64,000 bases of DNA, taken from NCBI GenBank assembly GCA_964631835.1, contig CAZWAD010000021.1:271-64270 (forward strand), written 5' to 3'. A program made the translations under genes and the position numbers. The DNA is from an uncultured Chitinophaga sp. (GTDB lineage Bacteria; Bacteroidota; Bacteroidia; Chitinophagales; LD1). Position 1 is the first letter of the stretch. Each line of letters starts with the position of its first letter. Positions 3,037-60,633 of the stretch are shown piece after piece. Under the pieces are notes generated by a model. That model did not search any database and was not told the origin of the DNA. It worked only from the letters and a program-made list of their open reading frames with translations.

Positions 3037-4236
3037 TTACTTCAAAATTTCAGTTACCTGACCGGCACCTACGGTTCTTCCGCCCTCGCGAATCGCAAAG
3101 CGAAGACCTTTTTCCATGGCAATGGGGTAAATAAGCTTGGTGGTAAGTGTTACGTTATCACCGGGCATTACCATTTCAACGCCTGCCGGAAGAGTGATTT
3201 CACCGGTAACGTCAGTAGTGCGGAAATAGAACTGCGGGCGGTACTGGTTGAAGAAAGGAGTGTGACGTCCGCCTTCTTCTTTGTTCAATACGTAAACCTC
3301 GCATTTGAATTCAGTATGCGGAGTTACCGAGCCGGGTTTGCAAACCACCATGCCGCGCTTGATTTGCTCCTTCTCGATACCGCGCAGCAGAAGCCCTACG
3401 TTGTCGCCTGCTTCGCCACGGTCAAGAATTTTGCGGAACATTTCCACACCGGTTACAGTAGATGTTTGAGCTTTTTCGCCCTCTTTCTGCAAGCCGATAA
3501 TTTCAACCGGGTCGTTGGAGTTGATTACTCCTCTTTCAATACGTCCTGTAGCCACAGTTCCGCGGCCGGTAATAGAGAAAACATCCTCAACCGGCATCAG
3601 GAAAGGCTTGTCAACATCGCGGGGAGGAACCGGAATCCAGCTATCAACGGCATCCATCAAATCTTCAATAGCTTTTACACCGGCAGGGTCGCCATTCAAA
3701 CCGCCCAGGGCAGAACCTTTGATGATAGGAATGTTTGCGCCATCGAATTTGTAGAAAGTAAGCAGGTCGCGGATTTCCATTTCGCCCAGTTCAAGAAACT
3801 CGGGGTCGTCAACCAGGTCAACTTTATTCATGAACACCACAATTTGAGGAACACCTACCTGGCGTGCCAAAAGAATGTGCTCGCGGGTTTGCGGCATAGG
3901 ACCATCGGTAGCAGCTACCACCAGTATAGCTCCGTCCATTTGCGCGGCACCTGTAACCATGTTTTTGATATAGTCAGCGTGGCCGGGGCAGTCAACGTGG
4001 GCATAGTGGCGGTTAGCCGTAGCATATTCCACGTGAGCGGTATTAATGGTAATACCTCTTTCTTTTTCCTCGGGGGCGTTATCAATCGAAGAGTAATCGC
4101 GCACCTCGGCAAGTCCTTTCTTTGAAAGCACCGTTGTAATAGCGGCAGTCAAAGTTGTTTTACCGTGGTCAACGTGACCTATAGTTCCGATGTTTACGTG
4201 CGGCTTGTCCTTAATAAATTTTTCTTTAGTAGCCAT
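3037..4236 (-). CDS. tuf: Translation elongation factor Tu
   Basis: 399-aa ORF with [18 protein letters not shown] and NKVD G-domain motifs. The sequence is EF-Tu-like over its full length. Confidence 0.98.
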
Positions 4237-6543: not shown

Positions 6544-8478
6544 TTATCTGCTTATGGTGATCCTCTTTATAGCTAATTTTTCCGCGGTTTGAACTTTAAC
6601 TAAGTAAGTTCCGTTGCTCAGGTCGCTGAAGTCGAATGTTTTGGTGAATACCGAATTAACATCGCCTGCTCTGAAGGTTTTTACTTCGGAACCGATAATG
6701 TTGTATACGCGAACAGTAATGTTCCTTTCAACTCCATTTACTGTCATGGTAAAGTTACCGTTACTGGGGTTAGGCTGAAGCGTAATAGCGTTATCAAAAG
6801 AAACATCGTCTATACCACTGCCGGTGCAGAGAGCATTAGTTGCAGCCAATACGTTGACAGTACGGGAGAATGAAAACTTGCAGTTAGCGCTATCCATGGT
6901 AAGTTTTACAGTATACTGGCCAGGAGAAGCATAAGTATAGTTAGCATCGGTAGTATTTACCAAATCTCCGTTGCCCATGTCCCAAAGTGAAGTCCATGGC
7001 GAGGTTGAGTATTGTGAAGTATTGGTATAGGTTTTAGATTGATTCTGGCAAACCGGTGTGGTATAAGTAAAGTTAACCGCATTAGCTACACCGCCCGGAT
7101 AAGAAACCGGAACGCTTACTGAAGCCGAACATCCCGAGTTATTGGTAACAGTAACACTATAAGTTCCGGCTGTGTTAACATTAACAGAAAGGGTCGTACC
7201 GCCAGTACTCCAGGCGTACGTTCTGCCTGACTGGTTACCGCTGGTTTGAGCCACAAGGGTAGTTGAAGCCCCACAGTTAAGAGTAACCGGGTTAGGAGTT
7301 ACAGAAACGCCTATACCTCTGGAGGTAATGTTTATAGTAGCTGTAGTTGTTGCATTAGTAGCATCGGTAACGGTAACGGTAACTGTTGTTGATTGGTCAA
7401 CAATCAGGGAAACGTTTTGATCGGTCGTAGAACTCAAAGTTCCGCTTCCGGTACTCCACTGATAGGTAAAAGGTGTTGCAGTTGAGCCGAATCCAAATGC
7501 GTTAAGGTTGAGCACCGTACCCGGGCAACCGGTTACAGAGTCGGCAGTAATAGCGGCACTGTACTGAACATCGGCAGTAATCCAGGGATAAATCCACCAG
7601 TTTTGTGCCGTCCACTGATTGCAAAGCGGGTCGCAGTTAAACTGAATAGAGTTAATTCCGGAAATATTTTGTCCGCCTCCTGTAATAGCATTGATATAAT
7701 ATAGGCTATTAGGTAAACCATTTGGATTGTTAGCTGCAGATTCTGCTGCTACACATGCATTAGCGCAATCATCGCGGAAACCGGCTTGTAAGAAGAACTT
7801 ATTCGCTGTGTCTCCCGAAAAATCTACCCGTATTCCAAAAGTTTCGCCAAGGTTGTAGGCAATATTAGGATACAATGTAATTCCAGTCCAGGTTGGAGTT
7901 CCTCCGTTATTTACGTTTAAAGGAATTTGCGTATTAGTTACTATCAGAGTATCCCAACGGGTAGGAGTTACCAATACTGCAGTAGGCCCGCTACCTGTAA
8001 TATTGAGCTGAGACCGGTCAAAAATGGTTATCCGGATAGAGTCGGGATTGTTAGTGGTATGTGTGTGAATGAAATAAAGATCAACACTATCAACCGTTAG
8101 AGTAGTTTTAGCTCTTGGGAAAAACGTAGGCATATTACTGCCATCCAAGTAAAGGATAGAATCATAAACCTGGGCGGCATATTTATGTGTAAAGGTTGAA
8201 GAGTTCGGATAACGGTTATTAATATCCAGAGTAGGGTCGTAGTAAAAATCAGTTCCTATGGCTGTGGCATATGCATCATCCACACCGGCATAGTCAATCA
8301 TAACAGCCGAAACCGAGTTTCTGTTGCCTTGCTGAGCTTGTTTTTTAGGGAACGAAATAACTTTTTTAGGAGAGTGAGTCCTGGTGTACTCGCTTTTGTC
8401 AATACCTGCCTGTGGTTGCTGTGCATATACCACTCCAAGGGCAATCAACAAGGAGAATAAAGTAGAAACCTTTTTCAT
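6544..8478 (-). CDS. Secreted T9SS cargo protein with Ig/PKD-like repeats
   Basis: Signal peptide MKKVSTLFSLLIALGVVYAQ, a PKD-like segment (WDMGNGD...YTYASPGQYTVKLTM) and a C-terminal Por-secretion-tail-like domain (LQPNPSNGNFTMTV...GTYLVKVQT). Confidence 0.85.
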   Translation of the reverse strand: MKKVSTLFSLLIALGVVYAQQPQAGIDKSEYTRTHSPKKVISFPKKQAQQGNRNSVSAVMIDYAGVDDAYATAIGTDFYYDPTLDINNRYPNSSTFTHKYAAQVYDSILYLDGSNMPTFFPRAKTTLTVDSVDLYFIHTHTTNNPDSIRITIFDRSQLNITGSGPTAVLVTPTRWDTLIVTNTQIPLNVNNGGTPTWTGITLYPNIAYNLGETFGIRVDFSGDTANKFFLQAGFRDDCANACVAAESAANNPNGLPNSLYYINAITGGGQNISGINSIQFNCDPLCNQWTAQNWWIYPWITADVQYSAAITADSVTGCPGTVLNLNAFGFGSTATPFTYQWSTGSGTLSSTTDQNVSLIVDQSTTVTVTVTDATNATTTATINITSRGIGVSVTPNPVTLNCGASTTLVAQTSGNQSGRTYAWSTGGTTLSVNVNTAGTYSVTVTNNSGCSASVSVPVSYPGGVANAVNFTYTTPVCQNQSKTYTNTSQYSTSPWTSLWDMGNGDLVNTTDANYTYASPGQYTVKLTMDSANCKFSFSRTVNVLAATNALCTGSGIDDVSFDNAITLQPNPSNGNFTMTVNGVERNITVRVYNIIGSEVKTFRAGDVNSVFTKTFDFSDLSNGTYLVKVQTAEKLAIKRITISR

Positions 8479-15353: not shown

Positions 15354-16418
15354 ATGAAGAGAAAAATTACCCCCCTTCTGTTTAATATTTTTCTTGTTGC
15401 TTTTCTTCTCGAAATATCTCTTCGTTTCGTTCCTTTCTTAAAAACTTCTTCCGAAAAAAACGAAGGGAGGTATGTAAGCTACTACGGGGCGGTGAAAAAC
15501 TCGTGGTATCATACCTGGGTACCGAATTCAGATAACATCATCAGTGGAGGTAAAGAATTTTCTTATCCGTTTAAAGCCAACTCGCTTGGCTTAAGAGAAA
15601 AGGAGTTTACCCTGGAAAAACCCGATTCCGTTTTCCGAATTATAGTTCTGGGCGATTCGTATGCCGAAGGAGTAGGCACAGCATATGACAGCGCCTGGCC
15701 GCGGTTTCTGGAAAGACTAATCCAAAGTAAATACGGAAAAAACTTTGAGGTTATCAATGCCGGAGTATCCGGCAGCGACCCGTTTTATTCTTATACCTTA
15801 CTTCGCGATAAACTCATTCATTACTATCCCGATGCGGTTTTAGTGTCGATAAACACTTCCGATATCTACGATTTTATTTACCGGGGAGGTAAGGACAGAT
15901 TTCAACCCGATGGGACAACACATTACAGGAAAGGCCCCTGGTTTGAGCCCCTTTATCATTATAGTTATTTCGCCCGCGCTTCGTTGTATTTACTTGGATA
16001 CGGAAGAGGCCTGGTAAAAAGTTCGTCTATAAACCATTGGAACAGGGTCGCCACTGATTCTATTGCTTTAGTACTTTCAGACATAAAAAAAATTTGCGAT
16101 ACCAAAGGTATTTCCTTTGCTACTGTAATTCATTCTAACGGAGGCTTTTTAAAAACAGATTTTTTCAGCAGCATTCGGAAGTTTTTAGGTAATTCTATTC
16201 CCGACATTCAGATATTGGATAAGAAAGTAAGTTATGCAAACAACTTTGATATTACTCCCGAAATGCTTGATGTGATAAACGAAAAGAACAGTGATGAATA
16301 CATTTGGCATTCGAATTATCACTTTACCGGAAAAGGTTACGAACTGTTTTCCAATATTTTGTTTGAAAAAATCATTCAAACCGATTCGTTGTTTTTCCTG
16401 AAGAGAAATTCTGACTAA
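15354..16418 (+). CDS. SGNH/GDSL-family hydrolase, membrane-anchored
   Basis: N-terminal TM helix, block I IIVLGDSYAEGVG, and a later GVSGSDP block. Confidence 0.7.
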   Translation: MKRKITPLLFNIFLVAFLLEISLRFVPFLKTSSEKNEGRYVSYYGAVKNSWYHTWVPNSDNIISGGKEFSYPFKANSLGLREKEFTLEKPDSVFRIIVLGDSYAEGVGTAYDSAWPRFLERLIQSKYGKNFEVINAGVSGSDPFYSYTLLRDKLIHYYPDAVLVSINTSDIYDFIYRGGKDRFQPDGTTHYRKGPWFEPLYHYSYFARASLYLLGYGRGLVKSSSINHWNRVATDSIALVLSDIKKICDTKGISFATVIHSNGGFLKTDFFSSIRKFLGNSIPDIQILDKKVSYANNFDITPEMLDVINEKNSDEYIWHSNYHFTGKGYELFSNILFEKIIQTDSLFFLKRNSD

Positions 16419-18733: not shown

Positions 18734-20152
18734 ATGAAAAGCCTTTCTTCTGAACTTGTTCATCCGGTTTTTGAAATTGTTTCTGATGTAGCAGCCGAGT
18801 TAGATTACGAAACTTATGTTGTGGGAGGTTATGTGCGCGACTTGCTGCTTAAAAGAGACTGCAAAGACCTGGATTTTGTTTGTGTTGGTAGCGGAACGGA
18901 ACTTGCGGCAAGAGTTGCGGCAAAAATCGGAGGCAATATACATGTAAACTATTTTAAAAACTTCGGCACTGCCCAGTTTAAGTGGAACGAACTGGATTTG
19001 GAATTTGTGGGAGCCCGGAAGGAATCATATCAACGTCATTCACGAAAACCGGTTGTTGAAGACGGCACTTTGGAAGACGACCAAAACCGGAGGGATTTTA
19101 CTATCAACGCGCTTGCAGTCTCTCTCAACAAAAAATCGTTTGGCAGGTTAGTTGACCCGTTTAACGGGGTAAAAGATTTAGCTGACAAAATCATACGCAC
19201 GCCACAAAAGCCCGATATCACCTTCAGCGATGACCCTTTAAGGATGATGAGGGCTATCCGCTTTGCCACTCAACTTAACTTTCAGATTTTACCTGAAACA
19301 TTTGAGGCAATTAAAAACAATAAAGAGAGAATTAAAATTATTTCACAAGAGAGAATCACTGATGAACTGAACAAAATAATTCTGAGCCCTAAACCGAGCA
19401 CCGGGTTTATCCTTTTGGAACAATCCGGATTACTTGGAATTATTTTTCCTGAATTTCAGAAACTGAAAGGAGTTGAAAATTATGAAGGCAAGGGACACAA
19501 GGACAATTTCTATCATACACTTCAAGTTTTAGATAACCTGACCAAAACATCCAATGATTTATGGTTGCGATGGGCTGCTGTGCTTCATGATATTGCCAAG
19601 CCACCGACAAAAAAATTTGTTGAAGGACAAGGCTGGACTTTTCACGGACACGAAGTGCTGGGAAGCAAATGGGTGCCGAAAATATTTGCACGAATGAAAT
19701 TGCCAATGGGCAGCGAAATGAAGTTTGTGCGCAAAATGGTGTTCCTTCATTTGCGTCCCATCGCATTAACCAAAGAAGAAATAACCGATTCGGCTTTGCG
19801 CAGGCTGCTATTTGAAGCAGGTGATGATATTGAAAACCTGTTGATGTTGTGTGAAGCCGATATTACCTCAAAAAACAGGGAGAAAGTAAAACGCTACCTC
19901 GCCAAATTTGAGTTGGTACGCGAAAAACTTAAAGAGGTGGAAGAAAAAGACCGTATTCGCAACTTTCAGCCACCGGTTACCGGTGAGTTGATTATGCAAA
20001 CCTTTGGCATTGGTCCTTCACGTGAAATAGGTATCATCAAAGAGGAAATCAAAGAAGCTATCCTCGAAGGTAAAATCAGGAATGATTATGACGAAGCTTT
20101 TCAGATGATGCTGCGTTTGGGTGAGAAGTTGGGATTGAAAAAGGAGGTTTGA
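18734..20152 (+). CDS. CCA-adding tRNA nucleotidyltransferase / poly(A) polymerase-family protein with HD domain
   Basis: VVGGYVRDLLL...DLDFV nucleotidyltransferase head, RDFTINA motif and an HD region (LHDIAKP). Confidence 0.82.
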   Translation: MKSLSSELVHPVFEIVSDVAAELDYETYVVGGYVRDLLLKRDCKDLDFVCVGSGTELAARVAAKIGGNIHVNYFKNFGTAQFKWNELDLEFVGARKESYQRHSRKPVVEDGTLEDDQNRRDFTINALAVSLNKKSFGRLVDPFNGVKDLADKIIRTPQKPDITFSDDPLRMMRAIRFATQLNFQILPETFEAIKNNKERIKIISQERITDELNKIILSPKPSTGFILLEQSGLLGIIFPEFQKLKGVENYEGKGHKDNFYHTLQVLDNLTKTSNDLWLRWAAVLHDIAKPPTKKFVEGQGWTFHGHEVLGSKWVPKIFARMKLPMGSEMKFVRKMVFLHLRPIALTKEEITDSALRRLLFEAGDDIENLLMLCEADITSKNREKVKRYLAKFELVREKLKEVEEKDRIRNFQPPVTGELIMQTFGIGPSREIGIIKEEIKEAILEGKIRNDYDEAFQMMLRLGEKLGLKKEV

Positions 20153-21093
20153 TGAGTTTTAATCCTAAATTCCTGGTCGTCATTTGCGGGCCGACCGCAG
20201 TCGGCAAGACTTCACTTGCAATTGAGGCGGCTAAAAAATTTGAAGCAGAAATCATATCTGCTGATTCCAGACAGTTTTATAAAGAGCTCAATATCGGAAC
20301 GGCTAAACCCGATAAAAAGCAATTGAAAGAAGTAAAGCATCACTTCATCAGCAATATCTCCATTCACACTAAAAATTACAGCGCAGGGAAGTATGAAGCC
20401 GAAGTGCTTGAATTCCTGGAGAAGTATTTCAGGAAGAAAAATGTTGCAGTTCTTGTGGGCGGCTCAGGGTTGTTTATCAATGCAGTTTGCAGCGGCTTTG
20501 ATAAGTTTGAAAAAACAGACGATAACCAGCTCTACATCACCCGGAAATTTCTGAACGAAAAAAACATCAATTGGCTACAAGATGAATTGGGGCGATTAGA
20601 CCCTGAGTATTTTGCAGAAGTTGACAAAAACAATCCGGTTCGCCTGAAGCGGGCTCTTGAAATTATTTACACCACCGGTAAAAAATATTCCGAGCAGCGG
20701 ATTGGAAAAAAAACGGAGAGGCCATTCCACATCATCAAAATCGGATTGAGCCTGCCGCGCGAAATACTTTACGAGCGTATCAATCACCGGGTTGATGAAA
20801 TGATGAAAACCGGTTTGCTTGAAGAAGCTAAACAGCTTTACCTCCACAAAAAACTTCCAGCCCTTAACACCGTGGGTTACACCGAGCTATTTGATTTTAT
20901 AGAAGACAAGATTTCTCTGAAAGACGCTATTGCCCTCATAAAACAAAACACCCGCAACTATGCCAAACGGCAAATGACATGGTTTAAAAAAGATGGAGGC
21001 ATTAAATGGTTTGAACCTTCTCAACAGAAGGAAGTCCTGAATTACATTAGGTCACAGATTTTTGTGCAGGTAAAAGAGAATGATTTGGATTAA
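20149..21093 (+). CDS. miaA: tRNA dimethylallyltransferase
   Basis: GPTAVGKTSLAIE P-loop, ISADSRQFYKELNIGTAKP and NYAKRQMTWFKK motifs. Confidence 0.93.
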   Translation: MMSFNPKFLVVICGPTAVGKTSLAIEAAKKFEAEIISADSRQFYKELNIGTAKPDKKQLKEVKHHFISNISIHTKNYSAGKYEAEVLEFLEKYFRKKNVAVLVGGSGLFINAVCSGFDKFEKTDDNQLYITRKFLNEKNINWLQDELGRLDPEYFAEVDKNNPVRLKRALEIIYTTGKKYSEQRIGKKTERPFHIIKIGLSLPREILYERINHRVDEMMKTGLLEEAKQLYLHKKLPALNTVGYTELFDFIEDKISLKDAIALIKQNTRNYAKRQMTWFKKDGGIKWFEPSQQKEVLNYIRSQIFVQVKENDLD

Positions 21094-21252
21094 TCTGAAG
21101 CCTGTTCAAAAGTCAATATTCTATTCTTTACAGGTAACAGATACGTGCAAACATCCCCTATATAACGCGCATTTGTTGCGTAAAAGTTGAACATCAGATA
21201 CCAATTATCAAATAAATCGGTCTGCATCCATTAACGTCTGACTTCTTTCAGG

Positions 21253-21279
21253 CAATTGCCAAAAAATCTGTTTTTACGC
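21253..21279. repeat. Left copy of a 27/28-nt direct repeat flanking array D (CAATTGCCAAAAAATCTGTTTTTACGC)
   Basis: Matches 21846-21873 with one substitution and one single-base indel. Confidence 0.85.
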
Positions 21280-21375
21280 TTCTTTTCGCAAAACTAAGGA
21301 TAAATAAACCACAAGTTCCCGCATCCGCTAAAAGCGCAAGAGAGAACTCGAAGCACTTTAAACACAAATTTTTGC

Positions 21376-21711
21376 GAAATGTCTACGATACGAAGAAAAC
21401 AGTCTATGTTACCATCTATCGAGTCTATGTTACATGCTGAAATGCCTTGAACAGCATCTGTCATGGACATGTTCGATGCTATCATGTCTATTACAGATTG
21501 AATCGTGTCTATTTCATTTCGAAAGCAAGGCTCGATAGCAAGTGTTTTGTCTGTGTCAGATTCTATCGTGTCTGTTTCACTTCGAATCATGTCTACTCCA
21601 CTTCGTAACATGCCTGTGTTTGATGGTAACATGCCTATGATTCTTCGTGATGTGGACTCGTTTCGTGCTGGAATAGACATGTTGGAGAAAAGTGTGTTAA
21701 AGTTGCTGAAA
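21376..21711. repeat. Array D: 15-16 degenerate tandem units of exactly 21 nt (consensus about ATCRTGTCTRTTTCAYTTCGA)
   Basis: The core G(T/C)CT recurs at 21381 + 21k for k = 0..14 with no indels, as listed in the findings. Confidence 0.85.
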
Positions 21712-21841
21712 AGTGAGCACAAATGAGGTTTTCGGCTAATCACCCCCAAATGTTTTGAGGTAATATTCGAATGCATGCAGTCTTTTTGCCCCGCTTTTGT
21801 GGTAATCAGATAACCTGAGGTATCGTTTCTTAAATCACCGG

Positions 21842-21873
21842 TTTACAATTGCTCAAAAAATCTATTTTTACGC
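21842..21873 (+). promoter_or_regulatory. Right copy of the direct repeat, which is also the candidate promoter of the DUF2723 gene
   Basis: TTTA-(17 nt)-TATTTTTA approximates the -33/-7 consensus. The -7 box ends 20 nt before the ATG at 21890. Confidence 0.4.
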
Positions 21874-21889
21874 ACCTCAAAATCGCGCA

Positions 21890-24800
21890 ATGCAGAAATA
21901 TAAATTGCTCAACAACATCTTCGGATGGCTCTCCTTTGTTTTCGCTGCAATAGTTTATACCATGACCATGGAAAGCAGCGGAAGTTTCTGGGACTGTGGC
22001 GAGTTTGTTTCGGGGTGTCTTAAACTTCAGGTAGTTCACCCACCGGGCGCGCCATTTTTCCTGATGCTCGGTAGAATATTTACTCTCTTTTCCGGCTGGG
22101 ATCCCATGGTAAACGGAAGTGGTGCTCATGTGGCGCAAACGGTCAACTTTATGAGCGGTCTTGCTACTGCCGGGGCTGTGCTTTTTACTTTCTGGACAAC
22201 TACGGCTCTCGCCCGTAAATTTGTTTTCAGCGATGGCAATTATACCAATGGAAAAATTGTTACCGTTATCGGTGCAGGTTTACTCGCAGCAGGCGCATGC
22301 ACTTTCCTGGATTCACTTTGGTTCAGTGCTGTTGAAGGGGAAGTATATGCCTTATCTCAATTCTTCCTTTCACTGATTGTTTGGGCAATTTTGAAATGGG
22401 AAGCCGATGAAAGCAAATATGCCGACCATTGGCTGGTGTTCATTGCGTATATGACCGGTCTTTCCATTGGGGTTCACTTGCTCAGTTTGCTTGCGCTTCC
22501 GGCAATTGCGCTTATGTATTATTTCAAAAGATTTAAGAATACTACTCATACGGGATGGTTTTTGGCGGTAATGGCGGGTTTTGCAGCGCTGGGAATTTAT
22601 ATGAAATATATTATATCCTTCACCCAGTCGTACCTGGCGGGAATGGATTTGTATTTTGTAAACACCCTGCACTTTGGCTTTAACTCCGGAATTGTATTTG
22701 CGGTTATTACACTTATTGCATTGCTGGTTTCTATTTTGTGGTACACCCATACCGGCAAAGACCGCGACTTTTATATTGCCCTGGGAGTTGCTGTATTTTA
22801 TGTGGTGATAGATGTAATTATAACCGATAGCTGGACAGCGCGCTTTATCCGTCTTTTTTTTATTGCCGGATTATTCATGGCTCGGGAATACGGATACGAA
22901 GCAAGGCGTCTGCTGAATGTGACAATCCTTGCGCTTGCATTTTCTTATATCGGCTACCTTTCTTATGTTATGGTTCCCATTCGGGCAATTGCCAACCCGC
23001 CCATTAACATGAACCGCCCCGATGACCCGCTGAAAATAAAATCGTATGTTGACCGCGAGCAATATGGCGACCGTCCTTTGCTCAAAGGTCCGGATTATAC
23101 GGTTACTTCTTACGACATTGAAGATTACATTAAAACCAAACGCTGGGTAAAAGATGAGAAAGCCGGTCGCTATGTGGATGGTGGCGATAAGATTGATTAC
23201 AAGTTCCGCGATAATGTGCCTATGATGTGGTTTCCTCGTTTAGGTTTCTGGCAGGAAGAGGAAAAACATCCGGGTTACCGGGCGTGGTTGAATCCTGACC
23301 ATTATATTATTGACCGGGCAAATAATAATTCTATTGAAAGAACATTCCCTGCAGGTACGCTGGATGAAGCAAGAAAATATGTTGCTGAACTAAACCGGAA
23401 TCAGCCTAACCGGTACTATGTAAAAGATGCTATTACATTTAAAGACAACCTGCGCTATTTTTTCAAATACCAGGTAGGTTATATGTACTTCCGATATTTC
23501 ATGTGGAACTTTGCCGGCAGGCAAAATGACATTCAGGGAACATACGGTAATGATGACGGAAGATGGATTTGCGGGATTCCTTTTATTGACAATATGCATG
23601 CTTTCTTCACTCCCGACTGGCCGCAGGAAAACCTTCCGAAAAGCGCATTGGAAAACAAAGCGCGAAATAAGTTTTACCTGATTCCGCTCATCCTGGGACT
23701 CATCGGGCTCATTTATACTTTGTTTAAGGACGAAAAGACTTTCTTTTTTGTTCTGGTACTTTTTGGCACTACAGGGTTGTTGCAGATTGTTTATCAAAAC
23801 GAACCTCCAATTGAACCACGGGAGCGTGATTATGCACAGGCGGGTTCTTTTGTTGCATTTACCATCTGGCTTGGTTTTTCTTTAGTGGCCATTGTTGATT
23901 TGCTGAAGAATAAACTCCGCCTGCCCGAGTTTCCTGCGGCAGCGGGAGCGTTAATTCTTTGCCTGTCAGCTCCTGTATTAATGGGAACTCAAGGCTGGAA
24001 CGACCACACCCGCCATAATCGCTATACCGCACGCGATTTTGCAATAAGCTATCTGGAATCATGCGCCCCCAACGCTGTGATATTTACTCAGGGCGATAAT
24101 GATACTTATCCCCTTTGGTACGCGCAGGAAGTTGAAGGAGTGCGAACCGATATTCGAATCATTAATTTGTCGCTTCTTGGTGTGGATTGGTACATTGACC
24201 AGTTGCGTTATAAAATGAATGATGCTCCCGCACTCAAACTAACTTTTAGCCCCGAACAACTAAGAGGAGAAAGGCGCAATGCTGTTCGTTTTAAAAACGA
24301 CCCCCGTATTCCCCAAGGTGAATTCAGGAATCTGAAAGACATCATGCATTTTGTGGCGAGTGAAGACGACCGCGATAAAACCATTCTTTATCAGGGAGGA
24401 GAATTGGAGAACTACATTCCTACGCGCAATTTTTCAATTGAACTGGATGTAAATAAAGTGCGGGAGATGAACATGGTTTCGAAAGAAGAAGATTCGCTGA
24501 TTATCCCCAAAATGGAGTGGACACTTAACCGGGGCGTTCTGCTGAAAAATGATTTAGTGTCGTTGGATATTGTGGCGAACAACATCATGGAGCGCCCAAT
24601 TTACTTTGCTGTTTCGGTTGGTCCCGAAGCCTATCTCGGCATGGAGAAATTTTTCCAGCTTGAAGGATTAACCTACCGTATTGTTCCGAAAATAAATCCG
24701 GGTGGTTCACCCTACAGCGCTCCTCCGCGAACTGATGTTATGTTTGATAACATGCTGAAGAAATTCCGTTTTGGCGGCATCGCAGAGAATCCGAAAATTT

Positions 24801-25300
24801 ATCTGGATGAAAATGTTTTGCGCATGACAGTGAATATTCGCGGGAACTTTGGAAGGCTGGCACTTGAACTTCTCAAAAAAGGAGAGAAAGAAAAAGCTGC
24901 AGAAGTAATTGACTATGCGCTGAAGGTATTACCGCCTTCGCAGGTTCCCCATTCAGTATTTAATTATTCGTATCCCAAAGTTTATTACGAGGCAGGGCAA
25001 ATAGAAAAAGCGCGTAAGCTTTTGAACGAAATGCTCGCCAAATCAAAAAACGAGCTTGACTATTATAAAACGGTTTACAATTACACCTTAGCCCAGGCAA
25101 GAGATGCCGGTGACCGGGCTTATGCAGCTCAATTGGAACAAGGTGCTTTTACCGAGCGCAGAGATGTGCAGGAGGAACTTTACATTATGCAGGAACTTAC
25201 TCTGGCTTCGAAGCAGTTTGACGACTCTACATTTGCAGCAGGTGTAGAAAAGACATTTATGGATTACCGGATGTCGTTTGTTCAAATGCCGAAACAATAA
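21890..25300 (+). CDS. DUF2723-family polytopic membrane protein (GT-C-like, putative glycosyltransferase) with C-terminal helical-repeat domain
   Basis: 1136 aa. The N-terminus WDCGEFVSGCLKLQVVHPPGAPFFLMLGRIF is characteristic of DUF2723/TMEM260-like proteins. There are many TM helices and a soluble C-terminal domain. Confidence 0.82.
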   Translation: MQKYKLLNNIFGWLSFVFAAIVYTMTMESSGSFWDCGEFVSGCLKLQVVHPPGAPFFLMLGRIFTLFSGWDPMVNGSGAHVAQTVNFMSGLATAGAVLFTFWTTTALARKFVFSDGNYTNGKIVTVIGAGLLAAGACTFLDSLWFSAVEGEVYALSQFFLSLIVWAILKWEADESKYADHWLVFIAYMTGLSIGVHLLSLLALPAIALMYYFKRFKNTTHTGWFLAVMAGFAALGIYMKYIISFTQSYLAGMDLYFVNTLHFGFNSGIVFAVITLIALLVSILWYTHTGKDRDFYIALGVAVFYVVIDVIITDSWTARFIRLFFIAGLFMAREYGYEARRLLNVTILALAFSYIGYLSYVMVPIRAIANPPINMNRPDDPLKIKSYVDREQYGDRPLLKGPDYTVTSYDIEDYIKTKRWVKDEKAGRYVDGGDKIDYKFRDNVPMMWFPRLGFWQEEEKHPGYRAWLNPDHYIIDRANNNSIERTFPAGTLDEARKYVAELNRNQPNRYYVKDAITFKDNLRYFFKYQVGYMYFRYFMWNFAGRQNDIQGTYGNDDGRWICGIPFIDNMHAFFTPDWPQENLPKSALENKARNKFYLIPLILGLIGLIYTLFKDEKTFFFVLVLFGTTGLLQIVYQNEPPIEPRERDYAQAGSFVAFTIWLGFSLVAIVDLLKNKLRLPEFPAAAGALILCLSAPVLMGTQGWNDHTRHNRYTARDFAISYLESCAPNAVIFTQGDNDTYPLWYAQEVEGVRTDIRIINLSLLGVDWYIDQLRYKMNDAPALKLTFSPEQLRGERRNAVRFKNDPRIPQGEFRNLKDIMHFVASEDDRDKTILYQGGELENYIPTRNFSIELDVNKVREMNMVSKEEDSLIIPKMEWTLNRGVLLKNDLVSLDIVANNIMERPIYFAVSVGPEAYLGMEKFFQLEGLTYRIVPKINPGGSPYSAPPRTDVMFDNMLKKFRFGGIAENPKIYLDENVLRMTVNIRGNFGRLALELLKKGEKEKAAEVIDYALKVLPPSQVPHSVFNYSYPKVYYEAGQIEKARKLLNEMLAKSKNELDYYKTVYNYTLAQARDAGDRAYAAQLEQGAFTERRDVQEELYIMQELTLASKQFDDSTFAAGVEKTFMDYRMSFVQMPKQ

Positions 25301-35434: not shown

Positions 35435-36601
35435 TTAAGCGGAAGTATAAGCATATAACTGCCTCATTCCTTCACTCACTTCGCGAGGGCTGTACTTAGA
35501 TAAAATACTTTTTGCAATATTTTGCCTGCTATATTTCGGATATTGCTCAACCATTGTTACCAAAGCTTTTGCCAGTTCCTTTGTATTTTTTATCTCCACC
35601 AGAATACCATTAGCAGAGTTCACAAATTCTTCAGGTCCTCCGCATTTAGTAACCACTACCGGCAACCCGTTCATCAGGGCTTCGGCTGTGGCAATGCTGA
35701 ATGTTTCAAAGTTGCTGTTAAGAGCAAAAAAATGATGCGCCCGGTACAGCCCATTTACCTCATCATTTGGAATACTGCCGGTAAAAAACACCTGCTTGTT
35801 CAGCAAGCCGAGTTTTTCAGCTTGCTTTTCAAGCGGATTTCGGTCGGGGCCGCTTCCTACAATGGTTATTCGGAAGTCAGGTTGTTGTATGACCACCGTT
35901 TCAACAGCGGCAATCAATCCGGAAATATTCTTCTGATTATCGTCAAGATTGCAAATGCACAGGGCTTTTACACCGTTTGAAGCATCGGATGGCAAACCGG
36001 ATACCGACTCAACCGGGTTTAAAACGTTGGGGGTAATAACTGTTGGCTTATTTATTAGTAGTTTTTTTTCAGCCAAAACATTTTTCAAAAAGTTTGAAAC
36101 AACGGATACCGCTCTTGCCCGCCTGAAAGCGGAGCGGATAATAAAATGATGAACAAACGACAGGTTCTCATATCTTCCGTCTTCGTTTGCATAACCTGTC
36201 CAGTGTTCGGTAATCAGTAAAGGAATGCGATAGATGACACTCAGGAAAAGCGCAAAGAAACCCGCAGGAAAAACCACATGGTTATGAATGACAAAAGGCA
36301 AACCTGATTTTGTCTTTATATGATTGAACCCTCTCCAAAGGGAAAGCAGCAACAAGACTTGATTTAGAGCTTTACCTGACGACTGCCGATAGTACACCAC
36401 TGTTTCGGTAAAGTTTTCTCTTTTATAGTCCTTTATGACAAATCTTCCTTTTTGCGGGAAGACTGCCGGTGCGGCATAAAGCACCTTCGCGTTTACCATT
36501 TGCGCAATAACTCTTACATGCTTGAGAATGAAAATGCCGCTGACGGGTGTATGTTCTGTTGGATACCAACTTGGAATGATGAGCGAATAACTTGGCGGCA
36601 T
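35435..36601 (-). CDS. Glycosyltransferase family 4 (GT-B)
   Basis: 388 aa with the C-terminal EX7E-region pattern (ETFSIATAEALMNGLPVVVTKCGGPEEFV). Confidence 0.85.
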   Translation of the reverse strand: MPPSYSLIIPSWYPTEHTPVSGIFILKHVRVIAQMVNAKVLYAAPAVFPQKGRFVIKDYKRENFTETVVYYRQSSGKALNQVLLLLSLWRGFNHIKTKSGLPFVIHNHVVFPAGFFALFLSVIYRIPLLITEHWTGYANEDGRYENLSFVHHFIIRSAFRRARAVSVVSNFLKNVLAEKKLLINKPTVITPNVLNPVESVSGLPSDASNGVKALCICNLDDNQKNISGLIAAVETVVIQQPDFRITIVGSGPDRNPLEKQAEKLGLLNKQVFFTGSIPNDEVNGLYRAHHFFALNSNFETFSIATAEALMNGLPVVVTKCGGPEEFVNSANGILVEIKNTKELAKALVTMVEQYPKYSRQNIAKSILSKYSPREVSEGMRQLYAYTSA

Positions 36602-38561: not shown

Positions 38562-38813
38562 GAACTCCCGAGGGCTTCTGCAACACGTAACAAACCACAA
38601 CCGGAACTCCCGAGGGCTTCTGCAACGTGTAACAAACCTCAACCGGAACTCCCGAGGGCTTCTGCAACGCGTAACAAACCTCAACCGGAACTCCCGAGGG
38701 CTTCTGCAACGCGTAACAAACCCCAACCGGAACTTCCGAGGGCTTCTGCAACACGTAACAACCCCCAACCGGAACAGCGGAGGGCTTCTGTAACAGGTAA
38801 CAAACCAATTTTT
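38562..38813. repeat. Array B: 6 tandem units of exactly 42 nt (GAACTCCCGAGGGCTTCTGCAACGCGTAACAAACCTCAACCG)
   Basis: Units start at 38562, 38604, 38646, 38688, 38730 and 38772. Units 1-5 are about 90% or more identical and unit 6 is degenerate. The array ends 22 nt before the ATG at 38836. Confidence 0.92.
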
Positions 38814-38835: not shown

Positions 38836-40038
38836 ATGCCAAAACGTAAACTACCCCGTACCGATGAAGAGCGCGACACCGCACTTCGCACAGCCAAGAA
38901 CCGCAAAGATGCAGTTCCGCCTCCGCTCATTATTCCTTATACCGGAGCTACCATCACGCGGCTCGACACTTTTCAGCCCGCATACCGCACCAAGTACCTG
39001 GCGGTAGCTTCAGCCAAGAACGCCCAAACCGCGCTAACGGAACAAGTGTTAGAAGCCAAGCAGCAAGCCACTTATTATATTCTTGATTTTATAGATGCGC
39101 TCAACCGCGCCATACGCAGAAAACAGTTTTTGCCTTCGGTTCGCGCCTTGTATAATATTGATGTGAATGACGACCGCGCACCTGAAATAGATAATGAAGC
39201 CGATGTAACCACCTGGGGCGAAAACATTGATGCCGGTGAAACCACCCGCATTGCTGCCGGTGGAGCGCCCATTACTTTTCCATCGCTGGCGCAGGTAAAT
39301 ACCGCAGTAGGCAATTTCAATACGCTGAACGCCCAGCAAAGCAACGCGAAAGAAGCCTATGACATAGCCCAGGAAGCACTGGCTGCCGATAACCCCGAAG
39401 CCGATAAACTAATTCTGAAGCTGTGGAACGAAACCGAAACTGCTTTTGACGAAGGCAACAAGAGCAGTATGAGGCGCAAAGCCCGCGAATGGGGGGTGGT
39501 TTATACCATTGCTTCGGGCGAAGTGCTCAGCCCCGAAGAGTTTTCGATTACCGGTAAAATATCCCTGTCGGTTCCGGGCGCACCAGTACCGGTTGCCGAT
39601 GCGGTGATTACTGTGCTGGAAACAGGCGAGTCGGTACTCAGCCAAAGCAATGGCAACTACTTTATTACCGTGCTGCCTGCCGGAACCTACACACTGGTAG
39701 TGGATAAGGTGGGGTACACCTCTCAAACCATCAATAATGTAGCAGTTGTTGAAGGAGAGATAACTACGGTTAACGTTCAATTAGTAACAGCCGCCAGCAA
39801 CGGAAGCATAGTAGGCACGGTTACCCTGGGCGGCAATCCGGCATCGGCTACGGTAAGCATTGACGGCACCACATTCAGCACCAACACCGCCTTTACGGGC
39901 GTTTATACCATCGAAAATATACCGGCAGGAAACATAACGGTGCGCGCAACCATTATTGCCGACCCGGTAAATTTTCAAACACAAAATGTAACCGTGGTTG
40001 CCGGTGTGGCCACCGAAGTAAATTTCAGCTTCCCGTAA
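38836..40038 (+). CDS. Hypothetical protein (orphan N-terminal region plus two CarboxypepD_reg-like beta-sandwich domains), no signal peptide
   Basis: 400 aa with a basic N-terminus (MPKRKLPRTDEERD). The C-terminal segments GNYFITVLPAGTYTLVVDKVGYTSQT and GVYTIENIPAGNITVRA resemble carboxypeptidase-regulatory-like domains. Confidence 0.72.
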   Translation: MPKRKLPRTDEERDTALRTAKNRKDAVPPPLIIPYTGATITRLDTFQPAYRTKYLAVASAKNAQTALTEQVLEAKQQATYYILDFIDALNRAIRRKQFLPSVRALYNIDVNDDRAPEIDNEADVTTWGENIDAGETTRIAAGGAPITFPSLAQVNTAVGNFNTLNAQQSNAKEAYDIAQEALAADNPEADKLILKLWNETETAFDEGNKSSMRRKAREWGVVYTIASGEVLSPEEFSITGKISLSVPGAPVPVADAVITVLETGESVLSQSNGNYFITVLPAGTYTLVVDKVGYTSQTINNVAVVEGEITTVNVQLVTAASNGSIVGTVTLGGNPASATVSIDGTTFSTNTAFTGVYTIENIPAGNITVRATIIADPVNFQTQNVTVVAGVATEVNFSFP

Positions 40039-51374: not shown

Positions 51375-51932
51375 TTAGCCTTGAGCTGGCTGAGGAACCT
51401 CTTCGGCTGTTATCTGCCGGAATGAAAACTTATAGCCCTCATAGATTGCAATTCCGTAAAACAAAACGTCCATAGGCTGAAAGCTTTCAACAAGGGCGTC
51501 AATAGCTGTGCCGAAATCTACTGTAGTAAGTACCTGAAAGAAACCGAGGTCGGCTTGCTTCGATGCGAAGGCAATAATGGTAAAATAATTCCCCAGCACA
51601 CAACTAAGGAGGGCTGAGACAGCACCAATAATTCCGTAAATCTGGTCAATACCTTTACCCGCGAACCGGTTGGAAAAACCAACGAGTAAGCCGATAGCGA
51701 TTGCCATGTAGCCAATCTGGTATTCAGTAGCATACGAAACAGTTGCCCAAAACACTGCTCCGATAAGGCAAGCGATGATTGAGCCAAAAATGGCGAAGGG
51801 TAAATTCTGCTCTCCCCGTAGGGCTTGCAGGTGCTCATAGGCAAGTCGTTGTTGTTCGGCAGGGTCAGCAGTAACCGTTGTAGTTACAACAGGAGTTTCT
51901 TCTGTGTTTGGAGCAGGTGTAGTTTCTTCCAT
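51375..51932 (-). CDS. Hypothetical integral membrane protein
   Basis: 185 aa with an acidic/T-rich N-terminus and about 4 TM helices. Confidence 0.6.
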   Translation of the reverse strand: MEETTPAPNTEETPVVTTTVTADPAEQQRLAYEHLQALRGEQNLPFAIFGSIIACLIGAVFWATVSYATEYQIGYMAIAIGLLVGFSNRFAGKGIDQIYGIIGAVSALLSCVLGNYFTIIAFASKQADLGFFQVLTTVDFGTAIDALVESFQPMDVLFYGIAIYEGYKFSFRQITAEEVPQPAQG

Positions 51933-60294: not shown

Positions 60295-60360
60295 GATTGT
60301 GGTTTTGTAAGACCTGATTCGGATGGAGCAGCTGTTTATCTGCCCCGTACAGGCTTAAAT

Positions 60361-60633
60361 TCTTGTCTGTAACTATTGATTTGTTGACTGTAACTATTAG
60401 TTTGTTGTCTGTTAGGTATGATTTGTTGTCTGTAAGCATTAAGTTGTTGTCCGGCAGATGTAAATTGTTATCTGTTAGATATGAATTGTTGTTCGTTAGA
60501 TACGTTTTGTTGTCTGTTATTATCTAATTGTTGCTCGTTAGATATAATTTGTTGGCTGTAAGTATTGATTTGTTGTCTGTAAGATGTAAGTTGTTGTCTG
60601 TAAGATTTAAATTGTTTGGTTTCAGGGTTAGTT
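60361..60633. repeat. Array C: 13 tandem units of exactly 21 nt (consensus TGTTGTCTGTAAGATNTAAKT)
   Basis: Units start at 60361 + 21k for k = 0..12 with no indels, and 11 of 13 begin TGTT. The array lies in the convergent intergenic region between ruvB and the FemAB-like gene. Confidence 0.9.

Follow-up and report, generated by a model that had tools for sequence, protein, structure and literature searches.

The DUF2723 gene studied here, from an uncultured Chitinophagales-like genome, is preceded by two nearly identical copies of a short promoter-like sequence with a degenerate tandem array between them, and the question raised by this locus is what event left the second copy behind and whether that copy still has a function. 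The locus was examined within a continuous stretch of 64 kb, hereafter the window, and all positions are counted from its first letter. We put at about one half the probability that this bracket is the scar of one lineage-specific insertion or rearrangement in the DUF2723 promoter, in which the right copy would have kept its function and the left copy would be a decaying relic.

The left copy (CAATTGCCAAAAAATCTGTTTTTACGC) lies at 21253-21279 and the right copy (CAATTGCTCAAAAAATCTATTTTTACGC) at 21846-21873, and together they form a 27/28-nt direct repeat of 93% identity with the consensus CAATTGC[T]CAAAAAATCT[AG]TTTTTACGC. A preliminary description of this DNA had reported such a repeat with one substitution and one single-base indel, and its coordinates proved exact: G21270 in the left copy stands against A21864 in the right, and T21853 is missing from the left copy. 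Local alignment of the neighbourhoods of the two copies gave a score of 44, far above chance (18.5 +/- 2.2, with a maximum of 27, in 300 shuffles), and the alignment ends abruptly on both sides, the flanks of the bracket being at shuffle level (15 vs 15.5 and 17 vs 15.6). No third copy of the 27-nt repeat exists within the 64-kb window, where the sole other near match (16147-16165, 3 mismatches) falls inside a coding region. Since the longest exact run common to both copies is only 10 nt, an assembly artefact due to k-mer collapse is unlikely. The copies flank the whole of array D, as first described, this being a genuine array of 16 units at 21379-21714, and the ~566 bp between them consist of a 99-nt leader, the 16 x 21-nt array and a 131-nt tail. 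None of the other three arrays of the window is bracketed by a direct repeat. The genes annotated near the site are lpxA, cca, miaA, DUF2723 and SpoU, and the interval and its immediate neighbours contain the following features:

20149-21093, plus strand: miaA (tRNA dimethylallyltransferase), the left neighbour; Pfam IPPT, E = 8e-75.
21094-21252, no strand assigned: spacer from the miaA stop codon to the left copy; GC 0.37, no homologue in 87 related loci (blastn).
21253-21279, plus strand: left copy, probably a decaying duplicate of the promoter core; TGTTTTTA at 21269-21276 resembles a -7 box.
21280-21378, plus strand: non-repetitive leader from the left copy to the array, closed by a 10-nt inverted repeat; its part 21330-21378 is homologous to P0121 (see below).
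21294-21776, minus strand: open reading frame of 160 codons over the leader, the array and part of the tail (ORF160), probably not a gene.
21330-21485, minus strand: stretch homologous to P0121; 69% identity over 52 codons, gapless.
21379-21714, no strand assigned: array D, 16 degenerate 21-nt units with the core (A/G)TGTCT(A/G)T, without indel.
21715-21845, no strand assigned: non-repetitive tail from the array to the right copy, ending in TTTA at 21842-21845.
21846-21873, plus strand: right copy with the -7 box TATTTTTA at 21863-21870; orthologous position kept in relatives.
21890-25300, plus strand: DUF2723/TMEM260-like gene (putative protein O-mannosyltransferase family); homologues with PF11028/PF28495/PF28497.

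The function of the right copy could be assessed by comparison with ten relatives (L001-L004 and L081-L086), which are Chitinophagales or Bacteroidota MAGs or assemblies whose DUF2723 proteins are 65-73% identical to the one encoded here. A single promoter of the right-copy type was found 20-50 nt before the orthologous ATG in all ten, with the 19-nt core AAAAAATCTATTTTTACGC or a close form of it in eight and the variant TCTATTTTAATAC(A/T)TTTAC(G/C)C in L081 and L082. The start of the gene is also conserved among the relatives (ATGCAGAAATA(C/T)AAATTGCT), and the bases 3' of the right copy, ACCTCAAAA, match their GCCTCAAAAA, whereas the bases downstream of the left copy do not. The orthologous position and the matching 5' UTR therefore identify the right copy as an orthologous, selected promoter core, and the proposal that it holds the promoter of the DUF2723 gene was borne out by the presence of this core, or of its variant, in every relative; judged by this conservation, the gene's native promoter core lies in the right copy. 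The -7 box of Bacteroidota, TAnnTTTG, sits at -12 to -5 from the transcription start site (TSS) (PMC9723704; the consensus is also given in PMC7366714). The right-copy box TATTTTTA agrees with it at 7 of 8 positions, with A in place of the final G, and lies ~20 nt before the DUF2723 ATG; the -12 to -5 rule predicts a TSS at ~21875, relative to which the duplicated block spans -29 to -2. The TTTA that ends the tail (21842-21845) now occupies the -33 position of this promoter. In the window, three other genes (6544-8478, 35435-36601 and 51375-51932) are preceded by the same box, TATTTTTA. As for the core AAAAAATCTATTTTTACGC (21855-21873), it is identical in relatives with proteins only ~65-72% identical, a conservation far beyond the need of a -7 box, and it contains the palindrome AAAAAT-CT-ATTTTT; because of this excess conservation and the palindrome, a dedicated regulator may bind there.

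The same alignment gives the direction of change between the two copies. At column 34 of the alignment, the second position of the -7 box, nine of the ten sequences have A and the left copy alone has G, and the spacing of the family is kept by the right copy, the left one being shorter by one base. Both differences are thus derived in the left copy, given that the right copy matches the family in each. The left-copy box TGTTTTTA fails the TA at the first two -7 positions, and the TTTA found upstream of the right copy is absent there. With the -7 A>G change and the 1-nt deletion both derived, and with a copied block limited to -29 to -2, the left copy is probably a decaying relic of the promoter core, and from the consensus rules we infer that it is inactive. 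The expectation that it would drive plus-strand transcription into the array is accordingly unlikely to hold, with the -7 A replaced, one nucleotide deleted and no TTTA upstream. Both copies share ATTGC where the relatives have ATTC(A/G)C, which indicates that the left copy derives from the promoter of its own lineage rather than from an old paralogue. As all but 8 nt of the repeat belong to the 19-nt core under selection, any estimate of the age of the duplication rests on the two differences described above.

The comparison with relatives also concerns what lies upstream of the promoter. A tRNA-Gln(ttg) gene on the minus strand is found 100-300 nt upstream of the DUF2723 gene in all ten relatives (the L081 sequence begins inside it), and in the window miaA takes that place. 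The closest relatives of MiaA (83% and 81% identity) have the gene order cca-miaA-MFS-metallophosphatase-transketolase, and none of the three genes that follow miaA there, nor any tRNA-Gln remnant or att fragment, was found in the 64-kb window. When the interval 21094-21889 was compared with 87 related loci by blastn, the promoter motif was the sole match; the left copy, leader, array and tail were absent from every relative sampled. Differing ancestral contexts on the two sides therefore mark the 796-nt miaA|DUF2723 interval as a lineage-specific rearrangement junction. A search for a single copy of the repeat upstream of DUF2723 in relatives had been suggested as a check, and one copy was indeed found in each; neither the left copy nor the array had any counterpart there. 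These relatives are not strict empty sites, since they share the right flank and have tRNA-Gln rather than miaA on the left, and the best of them (73% identity for DUF2723, 83% for MiaA) are too distant to serve as a true empty site in which the left flank also matches.

Signs of integration near the DUF2723 gene are also found in some of the relatives. The tRNA-Gln beside it appears to be an integration hot spot in three of them (L003, 3150-3520; L085, 1980-2150; L086, 1-1742), with partial tRNA-like duplications and hairpins in L003 and L085 and an integrase and a resolvase in L086. In L082 (2870-3010) there is an apparent insertion of ~95 nt behind ATGCAGAAAT, the opening 10 nt of the DUF2723 gene; it ends in ATGAAAT, so giving a new in-frame start, and would be another small insertion at the DUF2723 locus.

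Array D, the main component of the bracketed segment, is strongly periodic, with an identity at lag 21 of 0.495 vs 0.256 +/- 0.032 at other lags. Adjacent units are ~50% identical and the two copies of the bracket 93% identical; the array therefore looks older than the bracket and probably arrived already formed, as a block rather than grown in place, to judge by these divergences. An origin of the array from the promoter was considered and rejected, as local alignment and a position weight matrix of the unit stayed at shuffle level (P = 0.35, 0.64, 0.11 and 0.42). The register of array D is intact over 336 nt, with no net indel despite the ~50% identity of its units. Neutral DNA would be expected to have acquired several indels, so the 21-nt register, which fits two helical turns, seems constrained. 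Such a strict register suggests some function of array D, one that the scar explanation leaves unaccounted for, and together with the TGTCT(A/G)T core it suggests a phased protein-binding array, as far as the pattern of bases can indicate. The core is also concentrated in a second array with a 21-nt period (60356-60616). Outside the two arrays it is rare, with 11 of its 13 occurrences in the window falling within them, and the arrays may belong to one repeat class or provide sites for one protein. GTCT/AGAC is under-represented ~3-fold in the rest of the window, and an apparent genome-wide avoidance of TGTCTRT was explained by lower-order depletion of GTCT and CTA.

An inverted repeat had also been reported to enclose the leader. 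It is present as a perfect 10-nt pair (21284-21293 / 21370-21379), but pairs of this kind occurred in 10.8% of Markov-resampled regions, the window mean being 0.4 per 796 nt, and its presence is thus at chance level. The RNA fold that it would enclose has z = -1.66. A structured RNA in the insert was rejected, as fold z values were between -1.3 and -1.7 on either strand and no Rfam match was obtained; among the Rfam 15 covariance models, tRNAs alone passed the gathering score, and hits within 21050-21950 were at chance level (E ~0.3).

Tandem repeats unrelated to the bracket were seen in several other places. The window holds a 42-nt array at 38562-38807 (5.9 copies, 92% identity), whose unit is unrelated to that of array D and which ends ~30 nt before the ORF at 38836-40038, and a 41-nt array at 1565-1707 (3.5 copies, 74% identity) in a divergent intergenic region, whose units on the minus strand carry TGTTTTACG or TATTTTATG, resembling the -7 box. 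An unrelated GC-rich genome (L091, JGI 3300044904, 3150-3480) has an intergenic 21-nt array with the unit ~GACTTGATTAAGTCCGTCNCC that was called as a 230-aa protein (P0127); it shares the period with array D and was rejected as its homologue. Arrays with a 21-nt period miscalled as heptad-repeat proteins thus occur in other phyla too.

The open reading frame on the minus strand of the insert, ORF160, raises a similar issue of coding. Its codon score is 0.05, with real genes at 0.137 or above and shadow ORFs at 0.114 or below; across array units, conservation is highest at its third codon positions; and its stop-free span is expected from column composition (P = 0.135). Neither Pfam, PHROG nor NCBIfam returned a match, a search of 1.8 billion representative proteins yielded no full-length homologue, and a word-index search was empty. 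Matches to heptad-repeat proteins of the phage-fibre type (E = 4e-8 to 4e-4) were judged weak and an effect of the repeats. The codon score, the wobble conservation, the P value of 0.135 and the lack of a family match led us to reject array D as a coding sequence on either strand. The one homologue of the leader and array start outside the window is P0121, a 55-aa ORF call (MIASNMSIIATVQGISACIIDTIDGNIDMFLRIIDIPQKFVFEVFWIVSLRFIKG) on an NCBI contig of 156,227 nt, which is 69% identical to ORF160 residues 98-149 (21330-21485) in the same frame and has a different C-terminus; a second copy is absent from the 64-kb window. P0121 may belong to the same assembly, and would then be a paralogous copy.

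These observations allow other explanations of the bracket to be weighed, beginning with those that concern the left copy itself. It could be an active, possibly weaker promoter that produces a plus-strand transcript of the leader and array, either a non-coding RNA with 16 AUGUCUA-type motifs or an alternative DUF2723 5' leader of ~600 nt, co-regulated through the 27-nt element. We regard this as unlikely, even though the left copy retains 18 of the 19 bases of an unusually conserved core, no terminator was found between the copies, so that read-through into the DUF2723 gene would be possible, the leader and array start are conserved at the second locus represented by P0121, and the indel-free 21-nt register suggests constraint. 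Against these points stand the loss of a near-invariant -7 A, a spacing altered by the deletion and the missing TTTA at -33, as well as the absence of an Rfam match and of significant RNA structure in the insert, and the motif fronts no other transcription unit in the window. Another possibility is that there was no duplication, and that the left element arose separately within one class of promoters or operators, served by the same regulator or sigma factor, and looks alike through shared function; strong selection on the 19-nt core in orthologues does mean that similarity within it carries little historical signal. However, the copies have in common the lineage-specific CAATTGC, which is different in all relatives, the left one is changed at the most conserved position, and a third copy is lacking in 64 kb, all of which makes a shared motif without shared origin the least probable of the explanations considered here.

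Other explanations concern the nature of the inserted DNA. The preliminary description had suggested an att-like or long target-site duplication, and a sharp-edged direct repeat around DNA absent from the sampled relatives was confirmed; terminal inverted repeats, a recombinase and a strict empty site were not found. No inverted repeats join the insert ends at 21280 and 21845, which have no similarity to each other, and no recombinase, integrase or transposase is evident among the annotated genes beside the insert, which itself contains a single ORF, ORF160, of spurious appearance. In its stronger form, this idea would make the copies the attL and attR of an integrative or dedicated mobile element, with the 566 bp being the element or what an internal deletion left of it. 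Att cores typically take the form of near-identical direct repeats of ~27 bp with sharp boundaries, the tRNA-Gln of the relatives adjoins the locus, with integrase and resolvase genes in at least one of them and partial tRNA duplications in L003 and L085, and part of the insert recurs at a second place. But the interior is a tandem array and not a set of element genes, there are neither inverted termini nor an adjoining annotated integrase or transposase, the 19-nt core had only two matches, both chance ones, in 2.9 million viral contigs, and nothing was found in phage or plasmid collections, so we consider an integrative element doubtful and slightly less probable than an active left promoter. 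More speculative still is the idea that leader and array form an undescribed copy-and-insert module, present in at least two copies and generating target duplications of ~27 bp without inverted termini or a recombinase of its own, in which the array would be a platform for phased TGTCT(A/G)T-binding proteins; we hold this as a long shot. ORF160 could also be a real coiled-coil gene with the heptad L-x-S-N-V/I-D-x, in which case the insert would be a gene and the left copy would lie past its stop codon. The frame does span the whole array, P0121 is in frame, a strict register of 21 nt, or 7 codons, is what a heptad repeat would keep, and the phage-fibre-type matches point the same way. Their HMMER significance is inflated by the repeat structure, however, no -7 box precedes the ORF, P0121 is just 55 aa long with a C-terminus of its own, and the shadow-ORF codon score, the conserved third positions, the openness expected by chance and the missing family match and full-length homologue are those described above; a gene within the insert is therefore quite improbable in our assessment.

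The insertion or rearrangement scar that we favour would have formed as follows. The ancestral order would have been tRNA-Gln on the minus strand, a short spacer, one conserved promoter core and then DUF2723-SpoU; a SpoU methylase gene follows the DUF2723 gene in the window, as it does in the relatives with downstream genes seen. The upstream side would have been replaced, bringing in miaA as the new neighbour, and a segment of ~566 bp with the old degenerate array would have been placed immediately upstream of the transcription start. In this process 27 bp of target (-29 to -2) would have been duplicated, so that the new DNA came to be flanked by a copy at either end. As the duplication regenerated the promoter core beside the gene, the right copy could keep working under selection, and the left copy, without function, would have begun to decay through the A>G change at -7 and the loss of 1 nt. 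We infer that the two copies arose by duplication of the target, for which the filling in of a staggered break and a replicative template switch, with the array segment copied in from a different locus, are candidate processes. P0121, in which the leader and array start recur, fits DNA copied from another locus.

As a scar, the bracket shows where this Chitinophagales-like genome of an uncultured organism was rearranged, and it provides a dated landmark beside an older 21-nt array. Should the array module occur in multiple copies, the bracket would offer the first handle on the spread of such arrays; otherwise it is an ordinary genomic scar.

Compared with known systems, the right copy resembles the sigma-A/sigma-ABfr promoters of Bacteroidota (-7 TAnnTTTG, optional -33 TTTG) in having a conserved TATTTTTA before the ATG and differs from them in its conserved block (19-25 nt), which is far longer than the -7 box and hints at an additional bound factor. 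Array D, an intergenic array directly upstream of a promoter, is placed like the contingency-type promoter-proximal tandem repeats of Zhou et al. 2014, as these are cited in PMC9426551; slippage-driven phase variation is unlikely here because units of array D are ~50% diverged and not near-identical. The bracket itself is comparable to the attL/attR cores of tyrosine and serine integrases in the length and sharpness of the repeat and in the tRNA-Gln hot spot beside the locus in relatives, but no integrase accompanies it, the insert has only 566 bp and the sequence targeted is a promoter, not a tRNA 3' end. It is also comparable to the target-site duplications of transposons and MITEs, being a pair of sharp-edged direct copies around DNA absent in relatives, with a partial second copy of that DNA, and it differs from them in having no terminal inverted repeats or transposase, in an insert that is mostly tandem array and in its length. 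Target duplications made by DDE transposases and casposases are usually 2-15 bp long, and 27 bp is longer than that. The bracket upstream of the DUF2723 gene would therefore be a genomic scar of known type with a duplication of unusual length, one that shows how a promoter may survive an insertion: with its core duplicated from -29 to -2, the gene keeps a complete promoter and the spare copy is left to decay.
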